Assembly (NCBI GenBank): GCA_037386965.1
Contig: JARRLN010000011.1
Location: 1 to 54,664, forward strand
Direction: 5' to 3'
Length of the DNA: 54,664 nt
From: Nitrospirota bacterium
GTDB lineage: Bacteria > Nitrospirota > Thermodesulfovibrionia > Thermodesulfovibrionales > JdFR-86
Position 1 is the first letter of the stretch, and the number at the start of each line of letters is the position of its first letter. Below, one piece after another: positions 3,374-15,151 of the stretch. The notes beneath the pieces were generated by a model. It was not told the DNA's origin and ran no database searches. It saw only the letters and a list, made by a program, of their open reading frames with translations. Both the position numbers and the translations under genes were made by a program.

Positions 3374-4660
3374 ATGCCAGCCGTCGTCATTGTGGGCGCC
3401 CAGTGGGGCGATGAGGGAAAAGGGAAAATCGTGGACGTCCTCACCGAAGAGGCCCACGTGGTGGCCCGGTACCAGGGCGGCCACAACGCGGGCCACACGG
3501 TGGTCATCGGCGGGAAGACCTTCATCCTGCACCTCATCCCCTCGGGCATCCTGCACGCGGGGAAGGCCGCGGTCATCGGAAACGGCACCGTGGTGGAGCC
3601 CGGGGCCCTCATCGCGGAGATAGAGGGCCTGAGGCGCGAGGGCATAGACGTCGACAACAACCTCCTGCTGAGCCGGGGCGCCCATCTCATCATGCCCTAC
3701 CACACGGCGCTGGACGGGGCCAGCGAAAAGCACCGGGGCTCCTCCAAGATAGGCACCACGGGCAGGGGCATCGGCCCGGCCTACGTGGACAAGATGGCAC
3801 GGGTGGGCCTCATGGTGGGGGACCTCCTGCATCCCGATATCTTCAGGGAAAAGCTGGAGAAAGCCCTTCATTACGTGAACCAGGTCCTCACCAGGGTCTA
3901 CGGGCAGGAGGCCTTCACGGCCGGCGACATCCATGCGGCCTTCATGGGATACGCCGAGAAGCTCGCCCATTACGTCACGGACACCGACGTCTTCTTGAAC
4001 CGGGCCCTGGACGAGAGGAAAAACGTGCTGTTCGAGGGCGCGCAGGGCACCCTCCTGGACATCGACCACGGCACCTACCCCTATGTGACCTCCTCCAGCG
4101 CCTCCGCAGGCGGCGCGTGCATCGGCTCGGGCGTGGGGCCCACCCGCATCGGAAAGGTCCTGGGCGTGGTGAAGGCGTACACGACCCGCGTGGGCGAGGG
4201 ACCCTTTCCCACGGAGCTTCGTGACGGCCTGGGCGAGAGGCTTCAGAAGAAAGGTGGGGAGTTCGGGGCCACCACGGGCAGACCCCGCAGGTGCGGATGG
4301 CTCGACATGGTCGCCCTCAGGCATTCCCGAAGGGTAAACGGCCTGACCGGCGTGGTGATGACCAAGCTCGACATCCTCGACGGGCTGGAGGAAATAAAGA
4401 TATGCTCGGCATACCGGTGCGGAGGAGAGAGGCTTGAGCACTTCCCCCGGGAGGCAACGGTCCTGGCCCGGTGCGAGCCCGTCTACGAGAGCCTCCCCGG
4501 CTGGAAGGAGAGCACGAGCGGCCTGCGCAGCATGGAGGAGCTCCCCAAGGGCGCCCGGGACTACATCGGCCGCATCGAGGAGATGCTCGGCGTGCCGGTG
4601 GCCATGGTGTCCACCGGGGCCAGCAGGGAGGAGCTTATCCTGAGGGAAGGGGGGTTCTGA
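3374..4660 (+). CDS. purA: Adenylosuccinate synthetase
   Basis: GAQWGDEGKGK, QGGHNAGHT, GTTGRGIGPAY, EGAQGTLLDIDHGTYPYVTSS, TTGRPRRCGWLD. Confidence 0.99.
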   Translation: MPAVVIVGAQWGDEGKGKIVDVLTEEAHVVARYQGGHNAGHTVVIGGKTFILHLIPSGILHAGKAAVIGNGTVVEPGALIAEIEGLRREGIDVDNNLLLSRGAHLIMPYHTALDGASEKHRGSSKIGTTGRGIGPAYVDKMARVGLMVGDLLHPDIFREKLEKALHYVNQVLTRVYGQEAFTAGDIHAAFMGYAEKLAHYVTDTDVFLNRALDERKNVLFEGAQGTLLDIDHGTYPYVTSSSASAGGACIGSGVGPTRIGKVLGVVKAYTTRVGEGPFPTELRDGLGERLQKKGGEFGATTGRPRRCGWLDMVALRHSRRVNGLTGVVMTKLDILDGLEEIKICSAYRCGGERLEHFPREATVLARCEPVYESLPGWKESTSGLRSMEELPKGARDYIGRIEEMLGVPVAMVSTGASREELILREGGF

Positions 4661-5037
4661 TGGACAGGCGCAAGTTCAAGCGGTACCGGCTGAGCCTGGA
4701 CGCCGAATTCTATGCGGGGGACCGCATCCTCCGCGGGGTCTCGAGCAATCTCTCCCAGGGGGGGTTGCTCCTGAGGACACAGCACAGCCTGAGCACGGGA
4801 AGCCTGCTGCACATCACGCTGTTCCTCCCCGACGGCAAGACCGCCCGGGTCAAGGGCAAGGCCCTGAGGAACGCGGGACCCGGCTCGGGCCTGGTCAGAA
4901 ACGGCATCGGCGTCCGGCTCATCGAGCACGACCAAGCCTACAGCGACTACATCGAGGGCCTGAGGAAACAGGCCGCCGGGAGCGCCGGGGATTCGGGCGA
5001 GGCCGGTCTCCCGGGACCGGAGGAGAAGGGGGCCTGA
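4660..5037 (+). CDS. PilZ-domain protein
   Basis: ATG overlaps the purA TGA; RRKFKR (RxxxR) and NLSQGG (D/NxSxxG) c-di-GMP-binding motifs. Confidence 0.85.
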   Translation: MDRRKFKRYRLSLDAEFYAGDRILRGVSSNLSQGGLLLRTQHSLSTGSLLHITLFLPDGKTARVKGKALRNAGPGSGLVRNGIGVRLIEHDQAYSDYIEGLRKQAAGSAGDSGEAGLPGPEEKGA

Positions 5038-5858
5038 GAAAGGGGCTTCTTTGGGGCCCTCCGCGAGGACCGGACCCGCCGCAGGGGTCGGAACCTCCGC
5101 AAGAACCGGGCCCTCCGCGAGAATCGGGCCCTCCGCGAGGGTCCGGCCCGTTCGGAGGCTCGCTCGATGCCCTGGCAGGCCGCCTGCTCAACGTCCTTTA
5201 CCCTGCCCGGTGCCCTTCCTGCGCCTCACCCCCCGACCGGTACAGCCTTTCGCCCCTGTGCTCGGCCTGCTGGGCGGGCATACGCCGTGAGGACGGCGTC
5301 GCCTGCCGGGTCTGCTCATTGCCGCTCATATCGCCTTACGCCACGGTCTGCGGCCAGTGCATGAAGCACCCTCCCCCCTTTGCCCGCGCGCTTTGCTACG
5401 GGGCCTATGCCGGCACCCTGAAGGAAGCGGTCCACCTGCTGAAGTTCCAGGGCATCAAGCGGCTGGCCCGTCCCCTGGGAGGGCTTCTCCTTGCGCTCGA
5501 CCTGCCCGGGGCGGACTGCGTGGCGCCCGTGCCGCTTTCCCCGGGCGCATTGAGGAGGCGCGGCTTCAACCAATCCTATCTTCTGGCCCGGGCCCTGGCG
5601 GCGGGGCTCGGCCTGCCCCTGGCCGGGGACGTCCTTTACAAGAGAAAGGAGACCCCCTCCCAGGTCGGCCTGACGCGGGCTCAGCGCCTGGGCAACCTCA
5701 AGGGGGCCTTCGCCCTTCGCCGAAAGCCCGACGGAGAGCGGGTGCTTCTGGTGGACGACGTCATGACCACGGGGGCGACCATGGGCGCGTGCGCCCGGAC
5801 GCTCTTGCGGGGAGGGGCAAAGGAAGTGACCGCGGTCTCACTGGCGCGGTCCCCCTGA
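5034..5858 (+). CDS. comF: ComF family protein (double zinc ribbon + phosphoribosyltransferase); start uncertain, CTG at 5034 proposed
   Basis: Frame is open upstream of the annotated TTG at 5319 and encodes LLNVLYPARCPSC..LCSAC..CRVC..CGQC; RGFNQS and LLVDDVMTTGAT motifs; no ATG/GTG/TTG before 5319. Confidence 0.8.
   Translation: MRKGLLWGPPRGPDPPQGSEPPQEPGPPRESGPPRGSGPFGGSLDALAGRLLNVLYPARCPSCASPPDRYSLSPLCSACWAGIRREDGVACRVCSLPLISPYATVCGQCMKHPPPFARALCYGAYAGTLKEAVHLLKFQGIKRLARPLGGLLLALDLPGADCVAPVPLSPGALRRRGFNQSYLLARALAAGLGLPLAGDVLYKRKETPSQVGLTRAQRLGNLKGAFALRRKPDGERVLLVDDVMTTGATMGACARTLLRGGAKEVTAVSLARSP
5054..5143 (+). repeat. Five tandem 18-bp imperfect repeats
   Basis: gggccctccgcgaggacc / ggacccgccgcaggggtc / ggaacctccgcaagaacc / gggccctccgcgagaatc / gggccctccgcgagggtc; in the comF frame they encode GPPRGP DPPQGS EPPQEP GPPRES GPPRGS. 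Confidence 0.9.
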
Positions 5859-5867
5859 GTACCGCCC

Positions 5868-6176
5868 TTAGTATATGGAGCGGATGCGCCCGGTCTGCTT
5901 CTGCACGATGAGCCTGTCCACAACGTTGCCCCGGGCGTCCAGTATCTCGGCCTCGAAGTAAAGCTCCTTTTCCTCTATCTTGCCCACCCTGAGGTTCCTG
6001 CCCTTCAGATGCTCCTTGAGTATCTCGCGGGCCTCCTTCTTGGTCCTGACGGGCCGCTTTTCTCCATAGGAGGAGTTCTGGGCAAGCGTGGCCGAAGAAG
6101 CCCGGTGGGCGCTTTCCCCCGGGCCGGCCCACAGGAAGAGGGAGGCGCAGAGGATTATGAGAAGGACCGGCTTCAT
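5868..6176 (-). CDS. Exported PepSY-domain-like protein
   Basis: Signal peptide MKPVLLIILCASLFLW; C-terminal LYFEAEILDARGNVVDRLIVQKQTG resembles the PepSY fold. Confidence 0.7.
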   Translation of the reverse strand: MKPVLLIILCASLFLWAGPGESAHRASSATLAQNSSYGEKRPVRTKKEAREILKEHLKGRNLRVGKIEEKELYFEAEILDARGNVVDRLIVQKQTGRIRSIY

Positions 6177-6185
6177 CTTCGGCAC

Positions 6186-6214
6186 ATTATAGTGAGTGCT
6201 TCCTTCGGGGTCAA
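6186..6214 (-). promoter_or_regulatory. Sigma-70 promoter, near-leaderless PepSY-like gene
   Basis: TTGACC-N17-TATAAT ending 9 nt before ATG 6176; no SD. Confidence 0.7.
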
Positions 6215-6239
6215 TGTTTTCGTGTTTCCCGGCGCAAAG

Positions 6240-6273
6240 AAAAAAGGCGGCCCTTCTCTGGGCCGCCTTTTTT
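6240..6273. terminator. Intrinsic terminator after the cytochrome c gene
   Basis: aaaaaggcggccc-ttctct-gggccgcctttttt with T tracts on both strands. Confidence 0.85.
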
Positions 6274-6286
6274 CGGGAAAGCATGG

Positions 6287-6595
6287 TTATTTCTTATGGC
6301 ACTTGGTGCAGTTGCCCTCGAAGCTGAAAGCCTTGGAGCCGTCATGGCAGGTAAAGCACGCCACACCGGCCTTGTGCGGAGCGGTGATCTCGACGCCGCC
6401 CTTCTTCATGGGGAAAATCTTGGTGTGGCAGTCGTTGCACTTCAGGCCGGCGTCGGCATGGACCTGGCCGCTGAAGGTCACCGGGCCCATGGGGCCGTCC
6501 TCGAACGTCAGGGTCTTGCCAGGGGGCACTGCCATGGCCAGTCCGGCAAAGACGAGTGTAAGGGCAATGATACCGACAAGAACGACTTTCTTCAT
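6287..6595 (-). CDS. Periplasmic triheme cytochrome c7-type protein
   Basis: Signal peptide; three CxxCH motifs (CNDCH, CFTCH, CTKCH); VTFSGQVH distal His; SD GGAGGAGG. Confidence 0.9.
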   Translation of the reverse strand: MKKVVLVGIIALTLVFAGLAMAVPPGKTLTFEDGPMGPVTFSGQVHADAGLKCNDCHTKIFPMKKGGVEITAPHKAGVACFTCHDGSKAFSFEGNCTKCHKK

Positions 6596-6698
6596 CTGAC
6601 TTCCTCCTCCGTGGTTTCGTAGTTCACCGTTCATACGCTTTACCCCCATACCCTTGCAGACTATTCCTGCCCTCCTTTCCGGGTGGTGACTGGCGTAT

Positions 6699-6759
6699 AT
6701 ATTACCAGAGTATGAAAACAATATGAACAGGCTGCGAACAGATTGTGAAAAAATATGAA
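6699..6759 (-). promoter_or_regulatory. Phased OmpR/PhoB-type direct-repeat operator plus extended -10 of the cytochrome c gene
   Basis: Plus-strand hexamers TATGAA 6711, TATGAA 6722, TGCGAA 6733, TGTGAA 6744, TATGAA 6754 (spacing 11,11,11,10); minus strand TGG-TAATAT at 6707-6699. Confidence 0.7.
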
Positions 6760-6767
6760 GAAGGGCC

Positions 6768-8120
6768 TTAAAGTGGCAAAAAAACGCTGAAAACCGAGCC
6801 CTTCCCGGGTCTGCTCGTTACCTCGACCCTGCCGCCGTGGGCCTGCACCAGCTCCTTGACTATGGTAAGCCCTATTCCCAGGCTCCCCCGGCCGGGATGC
6901 CCCGGGCGGTAGAAGCGCTCGAATATGAACGGCAGGTCCTTCTCCTCAATGCCCCGGCCGGTGTCGGAGACCTCGATGAGGGCCTCCTTCCCTCTCCGCG
7001 ACGCCCGTACCGCAACCTTTCCGCCGGGGGCCGTGGCCTTGAGGGCGTTGCTCAGAAGGTTTATGACCACCTGGCTGAGCTTGTCCGGGTCGGCGGCCAC
7101 CACGGTCTCCTCCGGGGCCTCGAGTGAAAGGGCTATGCCCTTGTCCTCGAAGACGCCCTGGTAGCGGTCCACGATGTTCCGGAGGAAGTGCGAAAGCGTG
7201 AGGTCCTCCTTCCTCAGGGCGAGGCTGCTGGCCTCGGCCTGGGAGAGGTCCTCTATGCCCTCCAGGATGCTCCGCAGGCGCCCTATCTCGGCATGAAGGG
7301 ACTCCAGGGTCTTCCTGTCGGTGGGGATGAGGCCGTCTATCATGCCTTCCAGCTCCCCGCGCACCGCGCTCAGGGGGGTTCTCAACTCGTGGGCGATGTC
7401 GGCCGTGAGCCGCCGCTTCAGGCGCTCCTGGGTCAGGAGGTTCTGGGCCATGGCGTTGAAGGTCTCAGAAAGGGTGCCGAGCTCGTCGCTCCGGGGGATG
7501 TGCACGCGGCTCTCCAGGTCCCCCTCAGAGATGCGGGAGGCCGCGGCCGTCAGCTCCTTGATGGGGCGGGTAAGCATCCGGGAAAAGACGATGCTCAGCA
7601 CGACGGCCACGCCACCCAGGGCCACCACCGAGACCAGGAGGAATTTGTTGGACCTCCGGACGAAAAGGGCTTCCCTCCGGGGGGCGGCCACCCAGGCCTC
7701 CAGGCGGCCTATCTGCTTGCCGCCCAGGAAAAGGGGAGCGGGCACGTACTCCCTCTGGGCCCGCCCCCCGCCGGCCGCAACGGCCCGCATGCGCTTCTTC
7801 ACCAGGGGCGGGAGGCTCTCCAGGGCCTCCCCGGTGTCCATGAGGAGCGCGCCCCGCTCGTCATAGACCTTGAGGTCCATCCCCATCATGGCGGCCCAGA
7901 CGGTGCCCCGCACCAGGTCCTCCCTCCGCCAGAGGCCGGCCCTGGCACGGGAGCTCTCCAGGGAGGCCACGACCCAGGAGACCCGGTCCAGCATTTCCCC
8001 TTCGAGGTATCCCCTGAAATCCTGGACCATGAGCTCCCGGAGAAGGAAGGTGCCGGAGAGGCCCACGGCCACCACAGAGACCAGAAGGAGGAGGAACTTC
8101 GCAGAGAGGCTCCTAATCAT
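6768..8120 (-). CDS. Membrane sensor histidine kinase (HAMP-HisKA-HATPase, BaeS-like)
   Basis: Two TM segments, HAMP, DIAHELRTPL H-box, NLLSNALK, DTGRGI, GLGLTIV-like G2 box. Confidence 0.95.
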   Translation of the reverse strand: MIRSLSAKFLLLLVSVVAVGLSGTFLLRELMVQDFRGYLEGEMLDRVSWVVASLESSRARAGLWRREDLVRGTVWAAMMGMDLKVYDERGALLMDTGEALESLPPLVKKRMRAVAAGGGRAQREYVPAPLFLGGKQIGRLEAWVAAPRREALFVRRSNKFLLVSVVALGGVAVVLSIVFSRMLTRPIKELTAAASRISEGDLESRVHIPRSDELGTLSETFNAMAQNLLTQERLKRRLTADIAHELRTPLSAVRGELEGMIDGLIPTDRKTLESLHAEIGRLRSILEGIEDLSQAEASSLALRKEDLTLSHFLRNIVDRYQGVFEDKGIALSLEAPEETVVAADPDKLSQVVINLLSNALKATAPGGKVAVRASRRGKEALIEVSDTGRGIEEKDLPFIFERFYRPGHPGRGSLGIGLTIVKELVQAHGGRVEVTSRPGKGSVFSVFLPL

Positions 8121-8808
8121 CGCGGCGCCCGGAGAAGCGATAGCCCGCCCCGTAGACGGTGTGTATGAAGGTGGGGTGCCTGGGGTCGGGCTCCACCTTG
8201 TGCCTGATGTTCTTTATATGGGCGTCCACGCTGCGGTCGTACCCCTCGAACTGATACCCCAGGGCCCCCATGACCAGCTCCTCGCGGGTGAAGACCTTCC
8301 CGGGATGGGAGGCCAGGGTGGAGAGTATCTTTATCTCGGTGCTGGTGAGGTTCAGCGGCCGGCCGTCGCGGGTGACCTGGTAGCGCTGCTCGTCGATGAC
8401 CAGGGAGCCGGCGTTGAAGCTCATGGGCTCCGCCGCACCCCCCTTGTCCGTCCGCCTGAGGACGGCCCGCACGCGGTACATGAGCTCCCGCGGGCTGAAG
8501 GGCTTGACCACGTAATCGTCGGCCCCCAGGGCGAAGCCCGCCACGCGCTCCTCCTCGGTGTGCTTGGAGGTGAGCATGATGATGGGGAAGTCCCCCAGCT
8601 CCTTCAGGCCCTGGCAGACCTCCTCGCCGCTCAGGTCCGGGAGCTTGAGGTCCAGGATGACGGCCAGGGGCGGCTCCTTCTCGGCGGCCTTGAGGGCGTC
8701 GCGCCCGCGCTCGACATGAAGCACCTGATAGCCCGCCTCCCGAAGGTAGACCTTCACCACGTTGGCTATCTTGGTGTCGTCCTCAACGATGAGTATGGGG
8801 CGGACCAT
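8113..8808 (-). CDS. OmpR-family response regulator
   Basis: LIVEDD, ILDLKLP, GADDYVVKPF, RSVDAHIKNIRHK, TVYGAGYRF; overlaps the kinase start. Confidence 0.96.
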   Translation of the reverse strand: MVRPILIVEDDTKIANVVKVYLREAGYQVLHVERGRDALKAAEKEPPLAVILDLKLPDLSGEEVCQGLKELGDFPIIMLTSKHTEEERVAGFALGADDYVVKPFSPRELMYRVRAVLRRTDKGGAAEPMSFNAGSLVIDEQRYQVTRDGRPLNLTSTEIKILSTLASHPGKVFTREELVMGALGYQFEGYDRSVDAHIKNIRHKVEPDPRHPTFIHTVYGAGYRFSGRRDD

Positions 8809-8929
8809 GGTTTGCCCTCCCTTCCTTTCATCCCTCTGGAAAACCCGTACAAAAAATTATACTTCATGAGAGGCGGGGCACGCCCCCGGAGGGCAGGAGG
8901 GTGAGGGGCGGGAGGACCTTGGAAAACCC

Positions 8930-8957
8930 CCCCGCGGGGCCGCGCGGCCCCGCGGGG
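8930..8957. terminator. Perfect 28-bp GC palindrome, probable fprA terminator
   Basis: ccccgcggggcc-gcgc-ggccccgcgggg, 17 nt after the fprA stop; short T tract on the minus strand. Confidence 0.7.
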
Positions 8958-8973
8958 CGTGACGTTCACGCAC

Positions 8974-10191
8974 TCAGAACTGCTTATGGTACTCGCGGGT
9001 CTTCTGCGCGAACCGGCGGCCGAAATCGTAGCAGGCCTTCACTTCGTCGGCCGAGGCCTTGTATTTCACCTCGAACCCGGGCTCCACGGTCTCGAGCTTC
9101 ATGTCCTTGAAGGCACCCAGCATCTCCTTGACCGCGCCGCCGCCCCAGCCGTAGCTGCCGAAAGCGCTGACGATGCGGTGCTTGGGCCGGAGGCCTTTCA
9201 GGTAGACGAGAAACTCTCCCACGTAGGGAAAGACGGTGTTGTTCAGGGTGGGCGAGCCCACCAGGGCGCCCCGGGCCCGCCAGAACTCCTTGACGGCCAC
9301 GCTGGTGGGCGAGGCCCTCAGCTTGAACACCCTGCAGTCCATGCCCTCGTCCCGGATGCCTTCCATCATGGGCTGGGCCATCTTCTCGGTGCTGTGCCAC
9401 ATGGTGTCGTAGACGATGACCACGCGCTCCTCGCTCTTGCCCCTGGCCATGTCCAGGTACATCTGGACGACCTTGCCGGGGTCCCGCCTCCAGATGATGC
9501 CGTGGTCGGGGGCTATCATGTCTATCTGAAGCCCCAGCTTCTCCAGCTCCGCCACCTTCCGCTCGATGAGGGAGCCGAAGGGCATGAGGATGTTGGCGTA
9601 GTAGTCCCAGACCGAGTCCTCCAGGGCGCCCATGGAGGAGCACTCCACGAACTCGTCGTCGAAGCGCTGCGAGGAGGCCAGGTGCTGCCCGAAGGCGTCC
9701 TGGCTGATGAGGAGCTTGTCCTCGCGCACGTAGGTCATCATGGAGTCGGGCCAGTGGAGCATGGGGGTCTCGATGAAAAGCAGGGTCTTCGCACCCGTCT
9801 TCAGCTCGTCCCCCGTTTTGACGATGTTGATGTTCCAGTGGGAGATGTCGAACATCTTCTCCAGGGCCTCCCGGGCCTTCTTGGTGCAGTATATCTGCGC
9901 CTCCGGGGCCAGCTCCACCACCTCCCAGAGGCCGCCCGCGTGGTCGGGCTCTATGTGGTTGACCACGATGTTTTTTATCCGGGACGGGTCGGTAATGGCC
10001 TGGATGTTCTGGATGGCGACGTCCACCATCTCGTGCCTGACGGCGTCCACCAGGGTGACGTCGCCGTCCATGATGAGGAAATTGTTGTAGGTGGACCCCC
10101 TGGGGGTCACGTAGCCGTGGAAGTCCCGTAAGGCCCAGTCGATGGCCCCCACCCAGTAGATGCCGGGCTTGATCTCGATGGTCTCGCTCAT
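8974..10191 (-). CDS. fprA: Flavodiiron protein (metallo-beta-lactamase + flavodoxin; O2/NO reductase family)
   Basis: GSTYNNF, NHIEPDHAG, PMLHWPDSM, SQDAFGQH, APDHG, YDTMWHST, FGSYGWGG. Confidence 0.95.
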   Translation of the reverse strand: MSETIEIKPGIYWVGAIDWALRDFHGYVTPRGSTYNNFLIMDGDVTLVDAVRHEMVDVAIQNIQAITDPSRIKNIVVNHIEPDHAGGLWEVVELAPEAQIYCTKKAREALEKMFDISHWNINIVKTGDELKTGAKTLLFIETPMLHWPDSMMTYVREDKLLISQDAFGQHLASSQRFDDEFVECSSMGALEDSVWDYYANILMPFGSLIERKVAELEKLGLQIDMIAPDHGIIWRRDPGKVVQMYLDMARGKSEERVVIVYDTMWHSTEKMAQPMMEGIRDEGMDCRVFKLRASPTSVAVKEFWRARGALVGSPTLNNTVFPYVGEFLVYLKGLRPKHRIVSAFGSYGWGGGAVKEMLGAFKDMKLETVEPGFEVKYKASADEVKACYDFGRRFAQKTREYHKQF

Positions 10192-10224
10192 GTATGCCCT
10201 CCGGTCGGGATGAAAAGGGGATTT

Positions 10225-10260
10225 GCGAACCAGTTCGCTTTATACCAGTTCGTCTTATAC
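10225..10260. promoter_or_regulatory. Candidate operator upstream of fprA
   Basis: Palindrome GCGAAC-CA-GTTCGC (10225-10238) overlapping a 15-bp tandem accagttcgctttat/accagttcgtcttat. Confidence 0.4.
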
Positions 10261-10422
10261 ATGACATTGAAGCCTGAAACGACGCTTACGCCAAGGCCGG
10301 TTGCGGCACTGCCATGTCGGCTGTTTCATGCGTGGAGCAATAGTACGACTATAATACATGGGCGCCGCCGATGCAAGGCAGGGGGGCCTGCACGCCGGCG
10401 AGGGAAAACGCTGCACCGGCCT

Positions 10423-10872
10423 CTACCAGCAGTTCCTCCGGTTTGCCCCCCAGCCCCGCTGCTCGCTGCTCCGGACGTCCACCAGGGTGCCTCCCCTGAA
10501 GGTCAGTATCTTGAGGAAATGCGTCTCTCCACAGTTATACACCCACTGGACCACCGGCTCCTTGCTCTTTTGGAAGGTCCCTCTTCCCTTGCCCTCCGGC
10601 GGAAGCGGGATGCCTCCCCGGGACTCCTCCCCGACGACCTCCTGGTAATCCGGCGGGCCGCAGACGAGATAGACCATGGACTTGGGGTCTCCCTCGGAGA
10701 ATATCTGGCCCTTGCAGATGAAAGCCGCATGGGCCGGGCCGGTAAGCGCAAGCCAGAGAAGAACGCCCGCAAGGAGAGCAAGACCCCGGGGAGCCGCTTT
10801 CGGCCGTCTCCCCTTGTCCTCCGCCGCCCGGCCCCCGCGTGGGGGCAGGGCATTCCGCAAGCGCATGGTCAT
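10423..10872 (-). CDS. DUF2845-like exported protein
   Basis: Hydrophobic signal ending AHA; EGDPKSMVYLVCGPP, QWVYNCG and LTFRGGTLVDV resemble DUF2845; start placed 6 nt after a TGT-TATCCT -10 box. Confidence 0.65.
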   Translation of the reverse strand: MTMRLRNALPPRGGRAAEDKGRRPKAAPRGLALLAGVLLWLALTGPAHAAFICKGQIFSEGDPKSMVYLVCGPPDYQEVVGEESRGGIPLPPEGKGRGTFQKSKEPVVQWVYNCGETHFLKILTFRGGTLVDVRSSEQRGWGANRRNCW

Positions 10873-10951
10873 GCGCACAGGATAACACGGCCGGGAAGCG
10901 AAGCAAAGGCAAAACCGCAGGGGACGCCACCTATCCGGCGCTTCCGGGGCG

Positions 10952-11884
10952 CTATGGGACTGCTCCGGCCTGCGTTGCGGGCCCTTCCGGGGGCCCCAGG
11001 GGAAGCTCGCTCAGGGCCACGGGGTTGGTGTTGACCGCGTTGACCTTGACCCCGTAGTGCAGATGGGGCCCCGTGGACCGGCCTGTGGAGCCCACCAGCC
11101 CGATGACCTGGCCCTTCCGTACGACGCTCCCCTTGGCGACCTTGAACGCCGAGAGATGCATGTAAATGGTGTATATGCCCTGCCCGTGGTCCAGCACCAC
11201 GGTGTTTCCGCCGAAGAAGAGCTCCCGGGCCAGCACCACGCGCCCGGCATTGGCCGCCAGCACGGGCTCTCCCCGGTGGCCCCGGATGTCCAGCCCCGTG
11301 TGGCGGCCTTTTTTGGTCCCGTTCATGAGACGCCGGGTGCCGAAAGCCGTGGAAAAGCTGTTATCAAGGGGCATGAGAAACCGTCCCTCCCAGAGCTTCC
11401 CGGAGACCCGCTGCCAGAGGGCCCGCAGAAGGGTCGCCTCCCGCTCCGCACGGGCCTCGTCCTTGGGGCTCAGGGTCACCTCTCCCCTCGGGAGCGTGAG
11501 TTTCTGAAGGGGAAAAGCTGCCTCCTCCACCACAAGGGGAAGCCTGAGGACCTCCCCGGCGGCCCGAACCTCGATGCTGACCGTTCCGGGAGGCGTCTGC
11601 AGGTCCACGGCCCCCACCGCCTCGAAGCAGCCGGGACCGCAGGGAGCAAAGGCCAGGTCTTCCTCTCCCACCCGTGCCTCGGGCGCATCGGGGTTTGTAT
11701 AGACCCTGAGGACGAAGGGGTCGCCGGGCTTGACCGAGGGCGGCAGGACCACCGCCTGCAGGGCAAGGGCTTGAGCGGGGAGCAAAAAGCCGAAAATAAT
11801 AACAAAAACAAAGGCCGCGTTCTTCACGGTGCTCAAGTATATCGCATCCCGCCCGGTGAGGGCAAACCGCGGCGGCAGGCCCAT
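10952..11884 (-). CDS. M23 family metallopeptidase
   Basis: HTGLD (HxxxD), LDHG, YMHLS, GSTGRSTGPHLHY; N-terminal TM/signal segment; start approximate. Confidence 0.9.
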   Translation of the reverse strand: MGLPPRFALTGRDAIYLSTVKNAAFVFVIIFGFLLPAQALALQAVVLPPSVKPGDPFVLRVYTNPDAPEARVGEEDLAFAPCGPGCFEAVGAVDLQTPPGTVSIEVRAAGEVLRLPLVVEEAAFPLQKLTLPRGEVTLSPKDEARAEREATLLRALWQRVSGKLWEGRFLMPLDNSFSTAFGTRRLMNGTKKGRHTGLDIRGHRGEPVLAANAGRVVLARELFFGGNTVVLDHGQGIYTIYMHLSAFKVAKGSVVRKGQVIGLVGSTGRSTGPHLHYGVKVNAVNTNPVALSELPLGPPEGPATQAGAVP

Positions 11885-11984
11885 AGCCCCCTTGGCGGGG
11901 CCGCCGGGGGCGGAGAAAGACCCCGTCAAAGAGGGGGTTTAGCCAGCCTAAATTTAGGACTAATAAATAATTTGAAAATTTCTC

Positions 11985-12014
11985 TTGACATCTGCCCCCC
12001 GACAGTGTTAGAAA
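11985..12014 (+). promoter_or_regulatory. Sigma-70 promoter with no downstream plus-strand CDS
   Basis: TTGACA (11985-11990), N18, TGt-TAGAAA; AT-rich upstream tract and palindrome CCTAAATTTAGG at 11947-11958. Confidence 0.55.
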
Positions 12015-12019
12015 AGATT

Positions 12020-12085
12020 AGCGCCTCGTTACCTCCCCTTGCTGCTGTCCACCACCCACGGGCAGCAGCAACCCCTTTCTAATCC
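12020..12085 (+). ncRNA. Candidate small RNA with C-rich anti-SD seed and 12-bp hairpin
   Basis: Follows the promoter; single-stranded ACCTCCCCT, then stem ttgctgctgtcc/gggcagcagcaa (one G:U) at 12039-12071, then a short T run. Confidence 0.45.
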
Positions 12086-12092
12086 ATACATA

Positions 12093-13259
12093 TTAGGCGG
12101 GGCGCCCGCCTTCTCCCTGGGAGGAAAGCTCCACGAGCTCGTAGCGGCGGCTTCCCAGGCCCAGCCTCTGGGCCTCCCGTACCTGAAGCTCATAGGGCTT
12201 CAGGTGCAGTCCCTCAAGCACGTCGGCCCCGGCGCGAAGGCCCCTGTCCTCGGCGGCCGACTGGGGCAGGGGCGCGGCTTTCCCCATGAGGTCCATGCTG
12301 GCCTGCTCCACCGCGACCAGGTCCTCGCCCATGAGGATTCCCTGCTCCTGCATGACCGGCACGTCGGCCCCCGGCATGCAGTCGCACTCCGGCTGTATCT
12401 CCGTGAGGAAGTTCAGGTAGAGGACCTTGCCGGGCGCGAAGGTGCTCAAGACCGCCCCGGCGGCCTCGGCCAGCGAGCGCATGAAGGTGCCCTCATCCGC
12501 CCCCTCCAGCACAACCGCCTCCCCGGGGCAGACCCGCGTGCACCGTCCGCACCGCCAGCAGCGCTCGTCCTCGTAGCGGAAGACCTTCCCATCTTGGGCG
12601 AACTCGATGCACTCCATGGGACAGACCTCCTCGCACTGGTAGCAGAGCTCGCATTTCCCCTGATCCCAGGTGAGCTTGCCGGCCCCTATGGCGTGCATGG
12701 AGCCCCTGCCGCACTTCCACCCGCAGGTGCGGTGGGCGGAGCTGACCCCGCCCATGGCCAGGTTCTTGATGGCCCCTGCGTACCCGGCGTTGATGTGCCC
12801 CTTTATGTGGGAGACCACCACCATGGCCGGCACGTCGTGGATGACGGAGGCCACGGCTATCTCGCCCAGTATCTCCCCGGCCTTGATGATGATGTTATCG
12901 CTGCCGTACAGGCCGTCGGCCAGGATGACGGGGGCGCCCACGGAGAGGTGGTTTATCCCGTTTTGGTTTGCGACCTCGAGGTAATCGAGCCCCTTGATGC
13001 GCACCGTGTCGGTCACGAAGGGCCTCGCACCGGCGCCCTTCAGGGCCTCCACCACCTTGCGCAGAAAGACCGGGCGCACCACCCGGTGAGCCCCGTGGGA
13101 GCCGAAGTGGGTCTTCACGGCAACCCATTCATCCGGCGCGAAGCGCCCGGCGAGGCCCGCTTCGCCCAGGAGCCTCTCGAGCTTCCCCGGCAGGCTATCC
13201 CCGTGGGTCCATTTGTACAGGCGGGCCGAAGCGAAGTAGACGCGGGAGACAGCGCTCAT
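12093..13259 (-). CDS. DUF362-family iron-sulfur protein with 2x[4Fe-4S] ferredoxin insert
   Basis: VAVKTHFG, SHIKGH, GAIKNLAMG, CELCYQCEEVCP, CWRCGRCTRVCP, PECDC. Confidence 0.85.
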   Translation of the reverse strand: MSAVSRVYFASARLYKWTHGDSLPGKLERLLGEAGLAGRFAPDEWVAVKTHFGSHGAHRVVRPVFLRKVVEALKGAGARPFVTDTVRIKGLDYLEVANQNGINHLSVGAPVILADGLYGSDNIIIKAGEILGEIAVASVIHDVPAMVVVSHIKGHINAGYAGAIKNLAMGGVSSAHRTCGWKCGRGSMHAIGAGKLTWDQGKCELCYQCEEVCPMECIEFAQDGKVFRYEDERCWRCGRCTRVCPGEAVVLEGADEGTFMRSLAEAAGAVLSTFAPGKVLYLNFLTEIQPECDCMPGADVPVMQEQGILMGEDLVAVEQASMDLMGKAAPLPQSAAEDRGLRAGADVLEGLHLKPYELQVREAQRLGLGSRRYELVELSSQGEGGRPA

Positions 13260-13510
13260 CTGGCCCCCGCCAGCCTGTTATAAATCCAGGCCAGCACGGC
13301 CCCGCCGGCCAGCCCGTCCACAAACCCGTACAGCAGCCCCAGAAGGCTGCCCGCGGGAGATATGGCGTACCCGGGGTAGATGGACCCGGCCATCACCGCG
13401 AGGAACTCCCGGGCGTAGCCCGTCCTGGCCGAAACAAGGGTGGTGACCAGGAGAGAGACGCCCCACACCAGCCCGAGGGCCACTCCCAGAGCCAGCGGCC
13501 TTATTTTCAT
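13256..13510 (-). CDS. Small membrane protein (family often labelled bacteriophage holin-like)
   Basis: 84 aa, hydrophobic, IYPGYAIS..GLLYGFVDG..LAWIYN pattern; SD GGAGG. Confidence 0.7.
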   Translation of the reverse strand: MKIRPLALGVALGLVWGVSLLVTTLVSARTGYAREFLAVMAGSIYPGYAISPAGSLLGLLYGFVDGLAGGAVLAWIYNRLAGAR

Positions 13511-13848
13511 CGCCTTTTCCTCCGTGCAATAATGTAGAGGGCAGCCAGCAGGGCTCCCCCGACGTTTGCCATCTCGTCCTCCCATGAGAAGGTGCGCGTC
13601 CGCGTGAACGACTGGGCCACCTCCATGAGCAAACCATACACCGAGGCGGAAACGACCGCCAGAGAGAGGGCATGCCGCCTGAGGGCCTCGCGCGAGAGCC
13701 CCCCGAGGACGCTGAAGAGCAGAAGACAGGTGATGCCGTACAGGACGGCATGGAGCAGGAGGTCGGAGTGGGGAACAAGCCCCCGCTGGCTGAAGGGATA
13801 GAGCGAGAAGAAAAGGAGCACGGCAAGCCAGAGGAGAAGTGTCCTCAT
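13507..13848 (-). CDS. VanZ-like membrane protein
   Basis: DLLLHAVLYG, YGLLMEVAQSF..RTFSWEDEMAN. Confidence 0.85.
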   Translation of the reverse strand: MRTLLLWLAVLLFFSLYPFSQRGLVPHSDLLLHAVLYGITCLLLFSVLGGLSREALRRHALSLAVVSASVYGLLMEVAQSFTRTRTFSWEDEMANVGGALLAALYIIARRKRR

Positions 13849-14687
13849 GTCTCCGGGCTCCCCAGGCTCCTCTGGTACAGCTCCCGCCGGCTCAGGCCGT
13901 ATTGCCCCGCCACGGTCCGGACCGCCTCCTTCCTGCCCATGCCGCGCTTCATCAAGGCCGCCACCTCCTCCAGGGCCTCCCCGAGCGTGCGCCCCGCCTC
14001 CGGGGGCTTGCCCTCCAGGACGATGACATACTCCCCCGCTATCACGGAACCTTCCCTCTGCATCATGTCCAGGACCCCGGAGAGCGTGCCCCGGAGCGCC
14101 TCCTCGTGCACCTTCGTCAGCTCGCGGATGACCGCCGCCCTGCGCCCGCCCCCCAGAATCTCCTCCATGTCAACGAGGGTGTCCACCACCCGGTGGGGAG
14201 ACTCGTAAAAGACCATGGTCCTGGGCTCGAGGGCCCGCTCCCTCAGAAACCTCTGCCTCTCACCCTTCTTGGAGGGAGAGAACCCGAAGAACGTAAACTC
14301 CTCGGTGGGAAGCCCCGAGATGCCCAGGGCGGCCACCAGGGCGGAGGGACCGGGGATGGCGACCACGCTTACTCCTTCCTCCAGGGCCCGCCTGATGAGC
14401 ACCGCCCCCGGGTCGGAGATGCCCGGGGTGCCCGCATCGGAGACCAGCGCCACGGATTCGCCCCGAAGAAGGCGGGCCATGACGGCCTCCGCCTTTACCT
14501 TCTCCTTCTCTCCCCAGTAACTTACCATGGGCCGGGATATGCCGAAATGACTGAGGAGCTTGGCCGTGTGCCGGGTGTCCTCGGCGGCCACGAGGTCCAC
14601 CTCCTTGAGGACCCTCAGCGCCCTCAGGGTGATGTCCTCGAGGTTGCCGATGGGCGTGGCGACGATGAAGAGGGCGCCCTTTCTCAG
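13845..14687 (-). CDS. rsmI: 16S rRNA C1402 2'-O-methyltransferase; CTG start proposed at 14687
   Basis: Conserved N-terminus GALFIVATPIGNLEDITLRA lies upstream of the annotated GTG at 14600; AEDTRH, LVSDAGTPGISDPG, IPGPSA, YESPHR, RELTKVHEE. Confidence 0.93.
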   Translation of the reverse strand: MRKGALFIVATPIGNLEDITLRALRVLKEVDLVAAEDTRHTAKLLSHFGISRPMVSYWGEKEKVKAEAVMARLLRGESVALVSDAGTPGISDPGAVLIRRALEEGVSVVAIPGPSALVAALGISGLPTEEFTFFGFSPSKKGERQRFLRERALEPRTMVFYESPHRVVDTLVDMEEILGGGRRAAVIRELTKVHEEALRGTLSGVLDMMQREGSVIAGEYVIVLEGKPPEAGRTLGEALEEVAALMKRGMGRKEAVRTVAGQYGLSRRELYQRSLGSPET

Positions 14688-15151
14688 AGGGATTCCTTGA
14701 ACTCCTTGAGCCAGACGATGTGGCTCATCTCTTCCTCGATGATGTCCTCCACCACGTCCTTCTCCCTGACCCCCTGCCTGAGGCCCACGAAGAAAAGCAG
14801 GGTCTCCTTCTCGAAGCCCAGGGCGAAGTCGGCCGCCTCGGCCACCGTGCCCACCCGGTCCATGGAGGGCAGGGCCTTCTTGTCGCCCAGGAAAAACTCG
14901 CTCTCCACCATGGCCCTGAAGTAGGGCTGCGCCTCCTCCCAGCCCTCCAGGGCCGGGGCATCTTTTATCTTGCCCAGGAGGTCCGTGAAGACCTGCTCGT
15001 GGTGGTGCTCCTTTTTGGCCAGGGTCGTAAACAGGTCCTTGAGGCCCTTGTGGTCGGGAAACCTTCCCGCCATCTCCTCATAGAACGCGTACCCGAGCCT
15101 CTCGGTCTGGATGGCCATCTCAACTACCTCGCGTACGGAGAAAGAAGCCAT
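14684..15151 (-). CDS. Ferritin/rubrerythrin-like diiron protein
   Basis: E..E..Y, LAKKEHHHE, GFEKETLLFF, IIEEEMSH: two ExxH motifs. Confidence 0.85.
   Translation of the reverse strand: MASFSVREVVEMAIQTERLGYAFYEEMAGRFPDHKGLKDLFTTLAKKEHHHEQVFTDLLGKIKDAPALEGWEEAQPYFRAMVESEFFLGDKKALPSMDRVGTVAEAADFALGFEKETLLFFVGLRQGVREKDVVEDIIEEEMSHIVWLKEFKESL

Follow-up and report, generated by a model that had tools for sequence, protein, structure and literature searches.

Initiation of translation at CUG is rare in bacteria; the codon is allowed by NCBI translation table 11, and NCBI annotates from protein-family evidence. Some non-AUG starts serve autoregulation or low output, an example being the AUU of infC. 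In the stretch of DNA analysed here, which comes from an uncultured Nitrospirota bacterium, 54,664 nucleotides long and referred to below as the window (contig C11 of a 2.54-Mb, 137-contig assembly with 63% G+C, labelled G000), the gene rsmI appears to begin at such a rare codon, a CTG that overlaps the TGA of the gene upstream. The gene comF carries a CTG in the same arrangement, embedded in the same eleven bases. We consider it likely that the rare CTG start of rsmI is real and overlaps the stop of the upstream gene, and that the eleven-base context it shares with comF is best explained as a coincidence. The two sites are probably alike in appearance only, with the comF site a look-alike.

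As with other rare bacterial CUG starts, the rsmI codon stands at the canonical start position of its orthologues and is preceded by a Shine-Dalgarno-like sequence, and NCBI starts both RsmI and PyrD, the product of another gene of this genome, at such a codon. Unlike those starts, the rsmI CTG is kept through genus-level divergence and always adjoins the end of an upstream frame. It also recalls the AUU of infC in being the weak start codon of a translation-related gene, conserved in a lineage, though no sign of sensing by IF3 or another factor was seen for it. The closest described mechanism is the coupling of termination and reinitiation at overlaps of -4 nt (NTGA), in which the two genes share four nucleotides of stop and start (Huber et al. 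2019, PMC6728339; review PMC12548453). At rsmI we find the same three elements, namely a same-strand pair of genes, a 4-nt overlap and, within the gene upstream, a Shine-Dalgarno sequence; the codon differs, as the described cases use ATG, GTG or TTG and no CTG case was found in that literature (PMC6728339, PMC12548453). A second parallel is the uPPE2-PPE2 pair of Mycobacterium tuberculosis, where downstream expression depends on a small upstream ORF (open reading frame), as reporters have shown (PMC11260477). Frames of 15 codons that precede rsmI in two relatives (G001 and G003) are likewise short and abut or overlap the main start, but here, unlike for uPPE2-PPE2, dependence is deduced only from the retention of the remnant.

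The CTG start of rsmI

The features of the rsmI locus are:

13845 to 14687, minus strand: rsmI, encoding the 16S rRNA C1402 2'-O-methyltransferase, 280 aa, with its start CTG at 14687-14685 and Pfam domains TP_methylase and RsmI_C.
14684 to 15151, minus strand: rubrerythrin-like (ferritin-fold) gene, 155 aa, Pfam PF02915 (E 1.7e-9), whose TGA at 14686-14684 overlaps the rsmI CTG.
14694 to 14698, minus strand: Shine-Dalgarno-like AAGGA, 6 nt upstream of the rsmI CTG, within the codons for ...EFKES of the rubrerythrin-like gene.

The protein read from CTG 14687, which contains the peptide GALFIVATPIGNLEDITLR, combines a TP_methylase domain (PF00590, E 1.5e-32) carrying the N-terminal TPIGN motif with the C-terminal helix-turn-helix domain of RsmI (PF23016, E 3.7e-7), and T-P-x-G-N is invariant in its orthologues. 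Upstream of this CTG the rsmI frame holds no ATG, GTG or TTG for 130 codons. The first canonical start in the frame is GTG 14600, the use of which would delete the invariant TPIGN motif. NCBI annotates RsmI with 280 residues, starting at CTG 14687, and the JGI gene calls give a shortened form of 251 residues. Eight independent JGI metagenome contigs from this species, which were found, like the comF contigs described below, through protein clusters, show the junction without any difference. These contigs fall into two haplotypes that differ only synonymously in the rsmI frame (GGC/GGT, GTC/GTT). A sequencing error at the CTG is excluded because the junction is the same in all 8.

A sequence-only reading of the window had pointed out that the CTG of rsmI and that of comF each overlap an upstream TGA in an identical context, that in neither gene an ATG, GTG or TTG precedes the conserved N-terminal motifs, and that a Shine-Dalgarno sequence precedes both sites. 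These descriptions are accurate: the window holds exactly two copies of CTGAGAAAGGG, one at 5034-5044 on the plus strand and one at 14687-14677 on the minus strand, and in both places the CTG overlaps the TGA that closes a real gene (PilZ and rubrerythrin-like, respectively). Neither frame offers a canonical start that would preserve the N-terminal domain, and the Shine-Dalgarno sequences lie where they had been placed (AAGGA 14698-14694, 6 nt before the rsmI CTG; GGAGG/GGAG at 5019-5025, 8-10 nt before that of comF). The same reading had named a miscalled ATGA as a possible source of both overlaps; this is ruled out by the 8 assemblies at rsmI, and at comF the junction is likewise identical in 9. 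It had also proposed an alignment of orthologues, with a clear outcome at each site: the rsmI CTG matches the start column of the orthologues, and CTG 5034 of comF matches none.

The alignment covers the rsmI start region in 30 genomes of the same family and order as the window genome (11 from the family, 19 as outgroup), and CTG 14687 falls in the column of the start codon. Outgroup genes start mostly with ATG, three with GTG and none with CTG, typically reading ATG AAA GGC (M-K-G). Within the family, CTG is found in 7 of the 11 genomes, belonging to six genera (G000, G003, G010, G007, G005, G008 and G001). The other four have TTG (two genomes), GTG (one) and, probably, an ATA that lies in an ATAG overlap (one); none has ATG. 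The codons that follow the start vary between genera (CTGAAAGGC, CTGAGGGGG, CTGAAGGGG and CTGAAGGGC), and all of them encode the conserved M-K/R-G. The RsmI proteins of the CTG genomes are 64-75% identical to that of the window and cluster on the RsmI tree, where six of the nine members of one well-supported clade have CTG, in addition to G001 outside the clade. The CTG has therefore been kept through deep divergence. The order of the rubrerythrin-like gene and rsmI is retained across much of the order, and a purine-rich block occupies the AAGGA position in every CTG orthologue. On this comparative evidence the CTG start of rsmI is real and conserved, as NCBI had annotated it beforehand.

Likely coupling of rsmI to upstream termination

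Translational coupling is the most likely mechanism of initiation at the rsmI CUG, judging from the arrangement of the locus across genomes. According to this model, rsmI would be translated from CUG 14687, which overlaps the UGA of the rubrerythrin-like gene and follows the weak Shine-Dalgarno sequence AAGGA at 6 nt. Ribosomes that end the upstream frame would already sit on the CUG, and these locally supplied ribosomes and the Shine-Dalgarno sequence would jointly compensate for the very low efficiency that the codon otherwise has as a start. RsmI output would then be low and tied to translation of the upstream frame.

Each of the seven CTG genomes has an upstream frame whose end lies at the rsmI start, at +1 in six of them and at -5 nt from the CTG in G001. 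This frame is the rubrerythrin-like gene in five of the seven (cut by the contig end in G010). In G003 and G001 the rubrerythrin-like gene has been lost, and a 15-codon frame that still resembles its C-terminus has been retained; in G001 this frame, equipped with an AGGAGG and an ATG of its own, reads M-R-N-K-W-L-H-E-F-K-G-N-I-G-D. Among the 23 genomes with other rsmI starts, only about 10 have an upstream frame that ends as close, by our own count from the 30-genome table, and a hand-computed hypergeometric test of CTG against an adjacent upstream stop gives p ∼0.01, ignoring shared ancestry.

Several points weigh against this interpretation. Shared ancestry inflates the association between CTG and an adjacent stop in seven of seven genomes, overlaps of 4 nt are common in compact operons irrespective of the start codon, and the mini-frame of G003 is without a good Shine-Dalgarno sequence. 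We infer both the use of the rsmI CUG and its dependence on upstream termination from comparison; the coupling suggested in the sequence-only reading fits these comparative data, which do not amount to proof. One may speculate, tentatively, that in this Thermodesulfovibrionales family translation of rsmI is possible only for ribosomes coming straight from termination at the overlapping UGA, with the CUG as an obligate reinitiation codon, and that the mini-frames of ∼15 codons in G001 and G003 are kept solely to deliver ribosomes. We regard this stricter version as possible but doubtful.

The comF locus

The features of the comF locus are:

4660 to 5037, plus strand: PilZ-domain gene, 125 aa, Pfam PF07238, whose TGA at 5035-5037 overlaps CTG 5034 and which is without the C-terminal zinc ribbon of its orthologues.
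5034 to 5036, plus strand: CTG in the comF frame, a candidate comF start, overlapping the PilZ TGA, with GGAGGAG at 5019-5025.
5054 to 5149, plus strand: 18-nt tandem repeat found by TRF, ∼5.3 copies, consensus GGGCCCTCCGCGAGNNNC, in place of the lost zinc-ribbon segment.
5154 to 5174, plus strand: GGAGG (5154-5158), followed by ATG 5167 in the PilZ frame (8 nt downstream) and CTG 5172 in the comF frame (13 nt downstream), near the start of the ComF orthologue alignments.
5172 to 5858, plus strand: conserved part of comF/comFC, with a double zinc ribbon and a phosphoribosyltransferase domain (Pfam DZR_2 and Pribosyltran).

The conserved part has both domains of the ComF/ComFC family (PF18912 and PF00156) and matches ComF of 28 relatives at 39-54% identity, as well as a C-terminal fragment in G006. 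The comF frame has no canonical start between 4644 and TTG 5319, which lies beyond the first zinc ribbon. Annotations begin within the gene: NCBI gives 165 residues from ATG 5361, and JGI either 179 (from TTG 5319) or 165. In the model with its start at 5034, whose repeat-encoded stretch includes GLLWGPPR, GPPRGPDPPQGSEPPQEPGPPR and GPDPPQGSEPPQEPGPPR, alignment with orthologues sets in only at residue ∼41-50. Codon usage in 5034-5171 scores -0.51 per codon in the comF frame, which is poorer than in either of the other two. The open comF frame carries no weight, since the repeat interrupts none of the three forward frames. Moreover, the PilZ frame invariably runs one base ahead of that of comF, and therefore any TGA in the PilZ frame creates an in-frame NTG. 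The CTGs of rsmI and pyrD are homologous to a canonical start of their orthologues, and CTG 5034 is not; it is not a conserved start and is without a homologue in any orthologue.

In relatives, the gene upstream of comF encodes PilZ with a C-terminal Trx2-like zinc ribbon (for example L039 of G005, 1100-1522, and L035 of G003, 989-1486), and the ATG or GTG start of comF lies within the final 34-37 nt of this gene. The RTG of these starts arises from the K/R and Cys codons of the second CxxC of the zinc ribbon, so that ∼35 nt are dual-coding. The PilZ gene of the window has lost its C-terminal zinc ribbon and, with it, the ancestral ATG or GTG start of comF that lay inside that segment, and a stop-free 18-nt tandem repeat now fills the gap. 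The repeat varies by one unit between strains, with one extra unit in L290 and L296. Its unit GGGCCCTCCGCGAG is confined to the comF locus, which rules out a dispersed element. The sequence of the junction itself is secure, as it is identical in 9 independent assemblies (JGI assemblies, SRA runs assembled by Logan and a second NCBI metagenome-assembled genome, MAG). For the same reason no base is missing at ATGCCCTGG, where an additional C would give a canonical start at ATG 5167 with its Shine-Dalgarno sequence. A start of comF at an NTAG or NTGA codon over the upstream stop was also considered for the relatives, and is ruled out because each of them has an ATG or GTG in frame, 15-21 codons ahead of the Y-P motif. 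Among GTDB species representatives and in a JGI metagenome scan, the nearest comF relatives were 52-54% identical.

Where comF starts in this species can be read in three ways. It may start at CTG 5034, coupled to PilZ termination, a reading that we hold to be tenable but short of probable. It gains from two observations that weigh against calling the site a look-alike: CTG 5034 shares the architecture of the three supported CTGA starts of this genome (an overlapped TGA and, 8-10 nt upstream, GGAGGAG), and no other near-cognate codon lies upstream of SLDALAGR, a weakly conserved segment. CTG 5034 may therefore be the start, in which case the sequence-only reading would be right for both genes. 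Alternatively, comF would start at CTG 5172 using GGAGG 5154-5158, with a normal-length N-terminus (M-A-G-R-L-L-N-V-L-Y-P...), and CTG 5034 would be irrelevant. Such a start would lie 7 codons before V-L-Y-P, close to the 8-9 codons seen in relatives without the upstream zinc-ribbon gene, and orthologue alignments begin about here. However, the spacing to GGAGG is 13 nt, ATG 5167, in another frame and at the ideal 8 nt, should win, and an uncoupled CTG is a very poor start; we find this alternative unlikely. The third reading, a possibility to be taken seriously without being favoured outright, is that comF has recently lost its start and is decaying, or yields an N-terminally truncated product from TTG 5319 or ATG 5361. 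This would agree with the replacement of the ancestral start region by the repeat and with the 165-aa and 179-aa products that NCBI and JGI annotate, and ATG 5361 could be coupled to the frame that GGAGG and ATG 5167 open at 8 nt, which ends in ATGA at 5361-5364. Yet the double zinc ribbon has kept its four CxxC motifs intact and in agreement with the family, the comF frame is without stops or frameshifts, and no strain variation was seen in 5172-5330 among the 9 assemblies.

The ORF from ATG 5167 is also of interest in itself: at 65 codons (5167-5364, plus strand, PilZ frame), it overlaps the zinc-ribbon region of comF, has an ideally placed GGAGG 8 nt before its ATG and ends in an ATGA overlap with ATG 5361.

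The shared eleven bases and other unusual starts

With a crude gene model of the G000 genome (2100 genes), we screened for coding potential upstream of the first canonical start. About a dozen genes showed it, among them prfB, as expected from its known frameshift. Two further CTG starts came out of this screen, and both are CTGA overlaps:

C27:1670, minus strand: pyrD, whose CTG overlaps the TGA of pyrK (GTC CTC TGA), where relatives have ATG, GTG or TTG.
C90:5124, minus strand: secreted, porin-like protein downstream of a PII (glnB/K) gene, whose CTG overlaps the PII TGA, with GGAGG 4 nt upstream.

In the alignment of pyrD, relatives have ATGA, GTGA or TTGA at the position of the CTG. The codon is identical in 5 other assemblies, one of which differs by 3 synonymous and 0 non-synonymous changes over the 16 codons that lead up to the first ATG, and NCBI starts PyrD at this CTG. 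The C90 protein has a signal peptide, MRLSLLLLAALLLVP, directly after its CTG; in a search for orthologues with which to compare its start, the only matches were in G003 and G006, both in different contexts. The pyrD and C90 starts read CTGAACACGG and CTGAGGCTTT, and neither carries AGAAAGGG. CTGA starts thus recur in this genome, without the AGAAAGGG context. By crude calls, the gene model contains 108 ATGA, 70 GTGA, 12 TTGA and 51 CTGA overlaps of 4 nt; nearly all of the 51 are CTGATG, in which the next codon is the start, and only 3 CTGA are credible starts.

The sequence-only reading had proposed a recurring CTG reinitiation signal and a genome-wide count of CTGA overlaps as a check on it. 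What holds of this proposal is the CTG start of rsmI and the occurrence of CTGA starts at pyrD and C90; what fails is the extended CTGAGAAAGGG context as a signal, since among the 3 credible CTGA starts only rsmI has AGAAAGGG, and the case for CTG 5034 of comF, which has no counterpart in orthologues, is weak. In its full form, rsmI and comF would use one dedicated signal, in which CTGAGAAAGGG, with a CUG overlapping the UGA and purine-rich positions +4 to +11, lets terminating ribosomes restart, and comF would begin at 5034. The identical 11-mer at two stop/start junctions, the Shine-Dalgarno-like sequence upstream of both, the use of CTGA starts elsewhere in the genome and the missing canonical start of comF, its sequence confirmed in 9 assemblies, all speak for it. 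Against this stand the other CTGA starts and the six other rsmI CTG orthologues, all without AGAAAGGG. Of the 8 copies of CTGAGAAAGGG in the genome, the 6 that lie elsewhere than at the two junctions are intergenic or encode L-R-K-G within genes. Among the 1984 predicted gene ends of the genome, 97 pairs agree by chance in all of an 11-mer made up of one base, the stop codon and the next seven bases, with 0.05 such pairs expected per 45-gene window, and the 46 codons after 5034 are unconserved, strain-variable and the least coding-like of the three frames. We therefore judge a dedicated signal improbable. The shared 11-mer is no signal, and the coincidence is not beyond chance; the identity of the two sites would result from chance together with purine-rich K/R-G codons. 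One observation could point the other way: all three supported CTG starts (rsmI, pyrD and C90) share CCTCTGA, and CCTC precedes TGA in only 19 of the 941 TGA gene ends, so that a context effect could have been dismissed as chance. Slippage by -1 at the two stops, giving rubrerythrin-RsmI and PilZ-ComF fusions, was the other explanation offered in the sequence-only reading, and the arrangement permits it in that both pairs have the downstream frame at -1 from the upstream one and open across the junction. Neither hallmark of programmed -1 frameshifting, a slippery heptamer or a stimulatory downstream RNA structure, was found at the rsmI or the comF site: the sites read TCCCTCTGAG and GGGGCCTGAG, without an X XXY YYZ heptamer, and the local RNA is no more structured than shuffled sequences (z of 0.94 and 0.51). 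In addition, outgroups have a free-standing rsmI with ATG at the same codon, the "fusion partner" in G001 and G003 would be a 15-aa remnant, and the product of the C90 CTGA gene opens with a signal peptide, a feature that has to be N-terminal. We give slippage next to no credence, and initiation at the CTG is the reading that we retain for rsmI.

Several other genes of this genome may have unusual starts or recodings. The start codon of rpoC (C30:6363-6381, outside the window) is TAG here and in a second NCBI MAG, GCA_037386945.1; it is TTG in 16 of 17 aligned relatives and in four JGI strains of the same species, and ATG in G011. NCBI starts RpoC four codons downstream, at ATC. The start of hflX (C16:∼3273, plus strand) appears to be ATA, with GAAGGAGGA 6 nt upstream and no canonical start for 36 codons. 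A typA/bipA-like GTPase gene (C99:∼759, plus strand) has no in-frame ATG, GTG or TTG in the 71 codons ahead of GTG 804, which lies just past the HGKT motif, such that the conserved NVAIIAHVDHGKT would be lost; by eye, no obvious near-cognate start is present just upstream of the NVAIIAHVDHGKT segment. In-frame TGAs occur at C85:6861 (plus strand), C85:1578 (minus strand) and C71:10853 (plus strand). They include candidates for selenocysteine, namely a TGA at the catalytic-cysteine position of a rhodanese (VVY-TGA-ASGSRS) and TGA-P-H-C in a thioredoxin fold, and a further TGA inside a multihaem cytochrome. At C20:15216 (plus strand) a signal peptide (ATG AGA ACG ...) and the mature protein lie in frames that differ by one, and a GGG/GG run would join them; this break is either a frameshift mutation or an assembly error.

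Taken together, the analysis separates a CUG start that is real and conserved in a lineage, that of rsmI, from a probable look-alike at comF. The distinction has consequences for annotation, as gene callers restricted to ATG, GTG and TTG, such as those behind the JGI calls, shorten RsmI by 29 residues and PyrD by 16, losing conserved motifs. In this species comF appears to have lost its start when the tandem repeat replaced the zinc-ribbon segment, and inventories of competence genes in the lineage should treat it cautiously. The rsmI genes of the family and its relatives, which follow either a complete upstream gene or a 15-codon remnant and have ATG, GTG, TTG, CTG or, possibly, ATA as start codon, offer a natural series for how far termination-reinitiation may relax the choice of the start codon.

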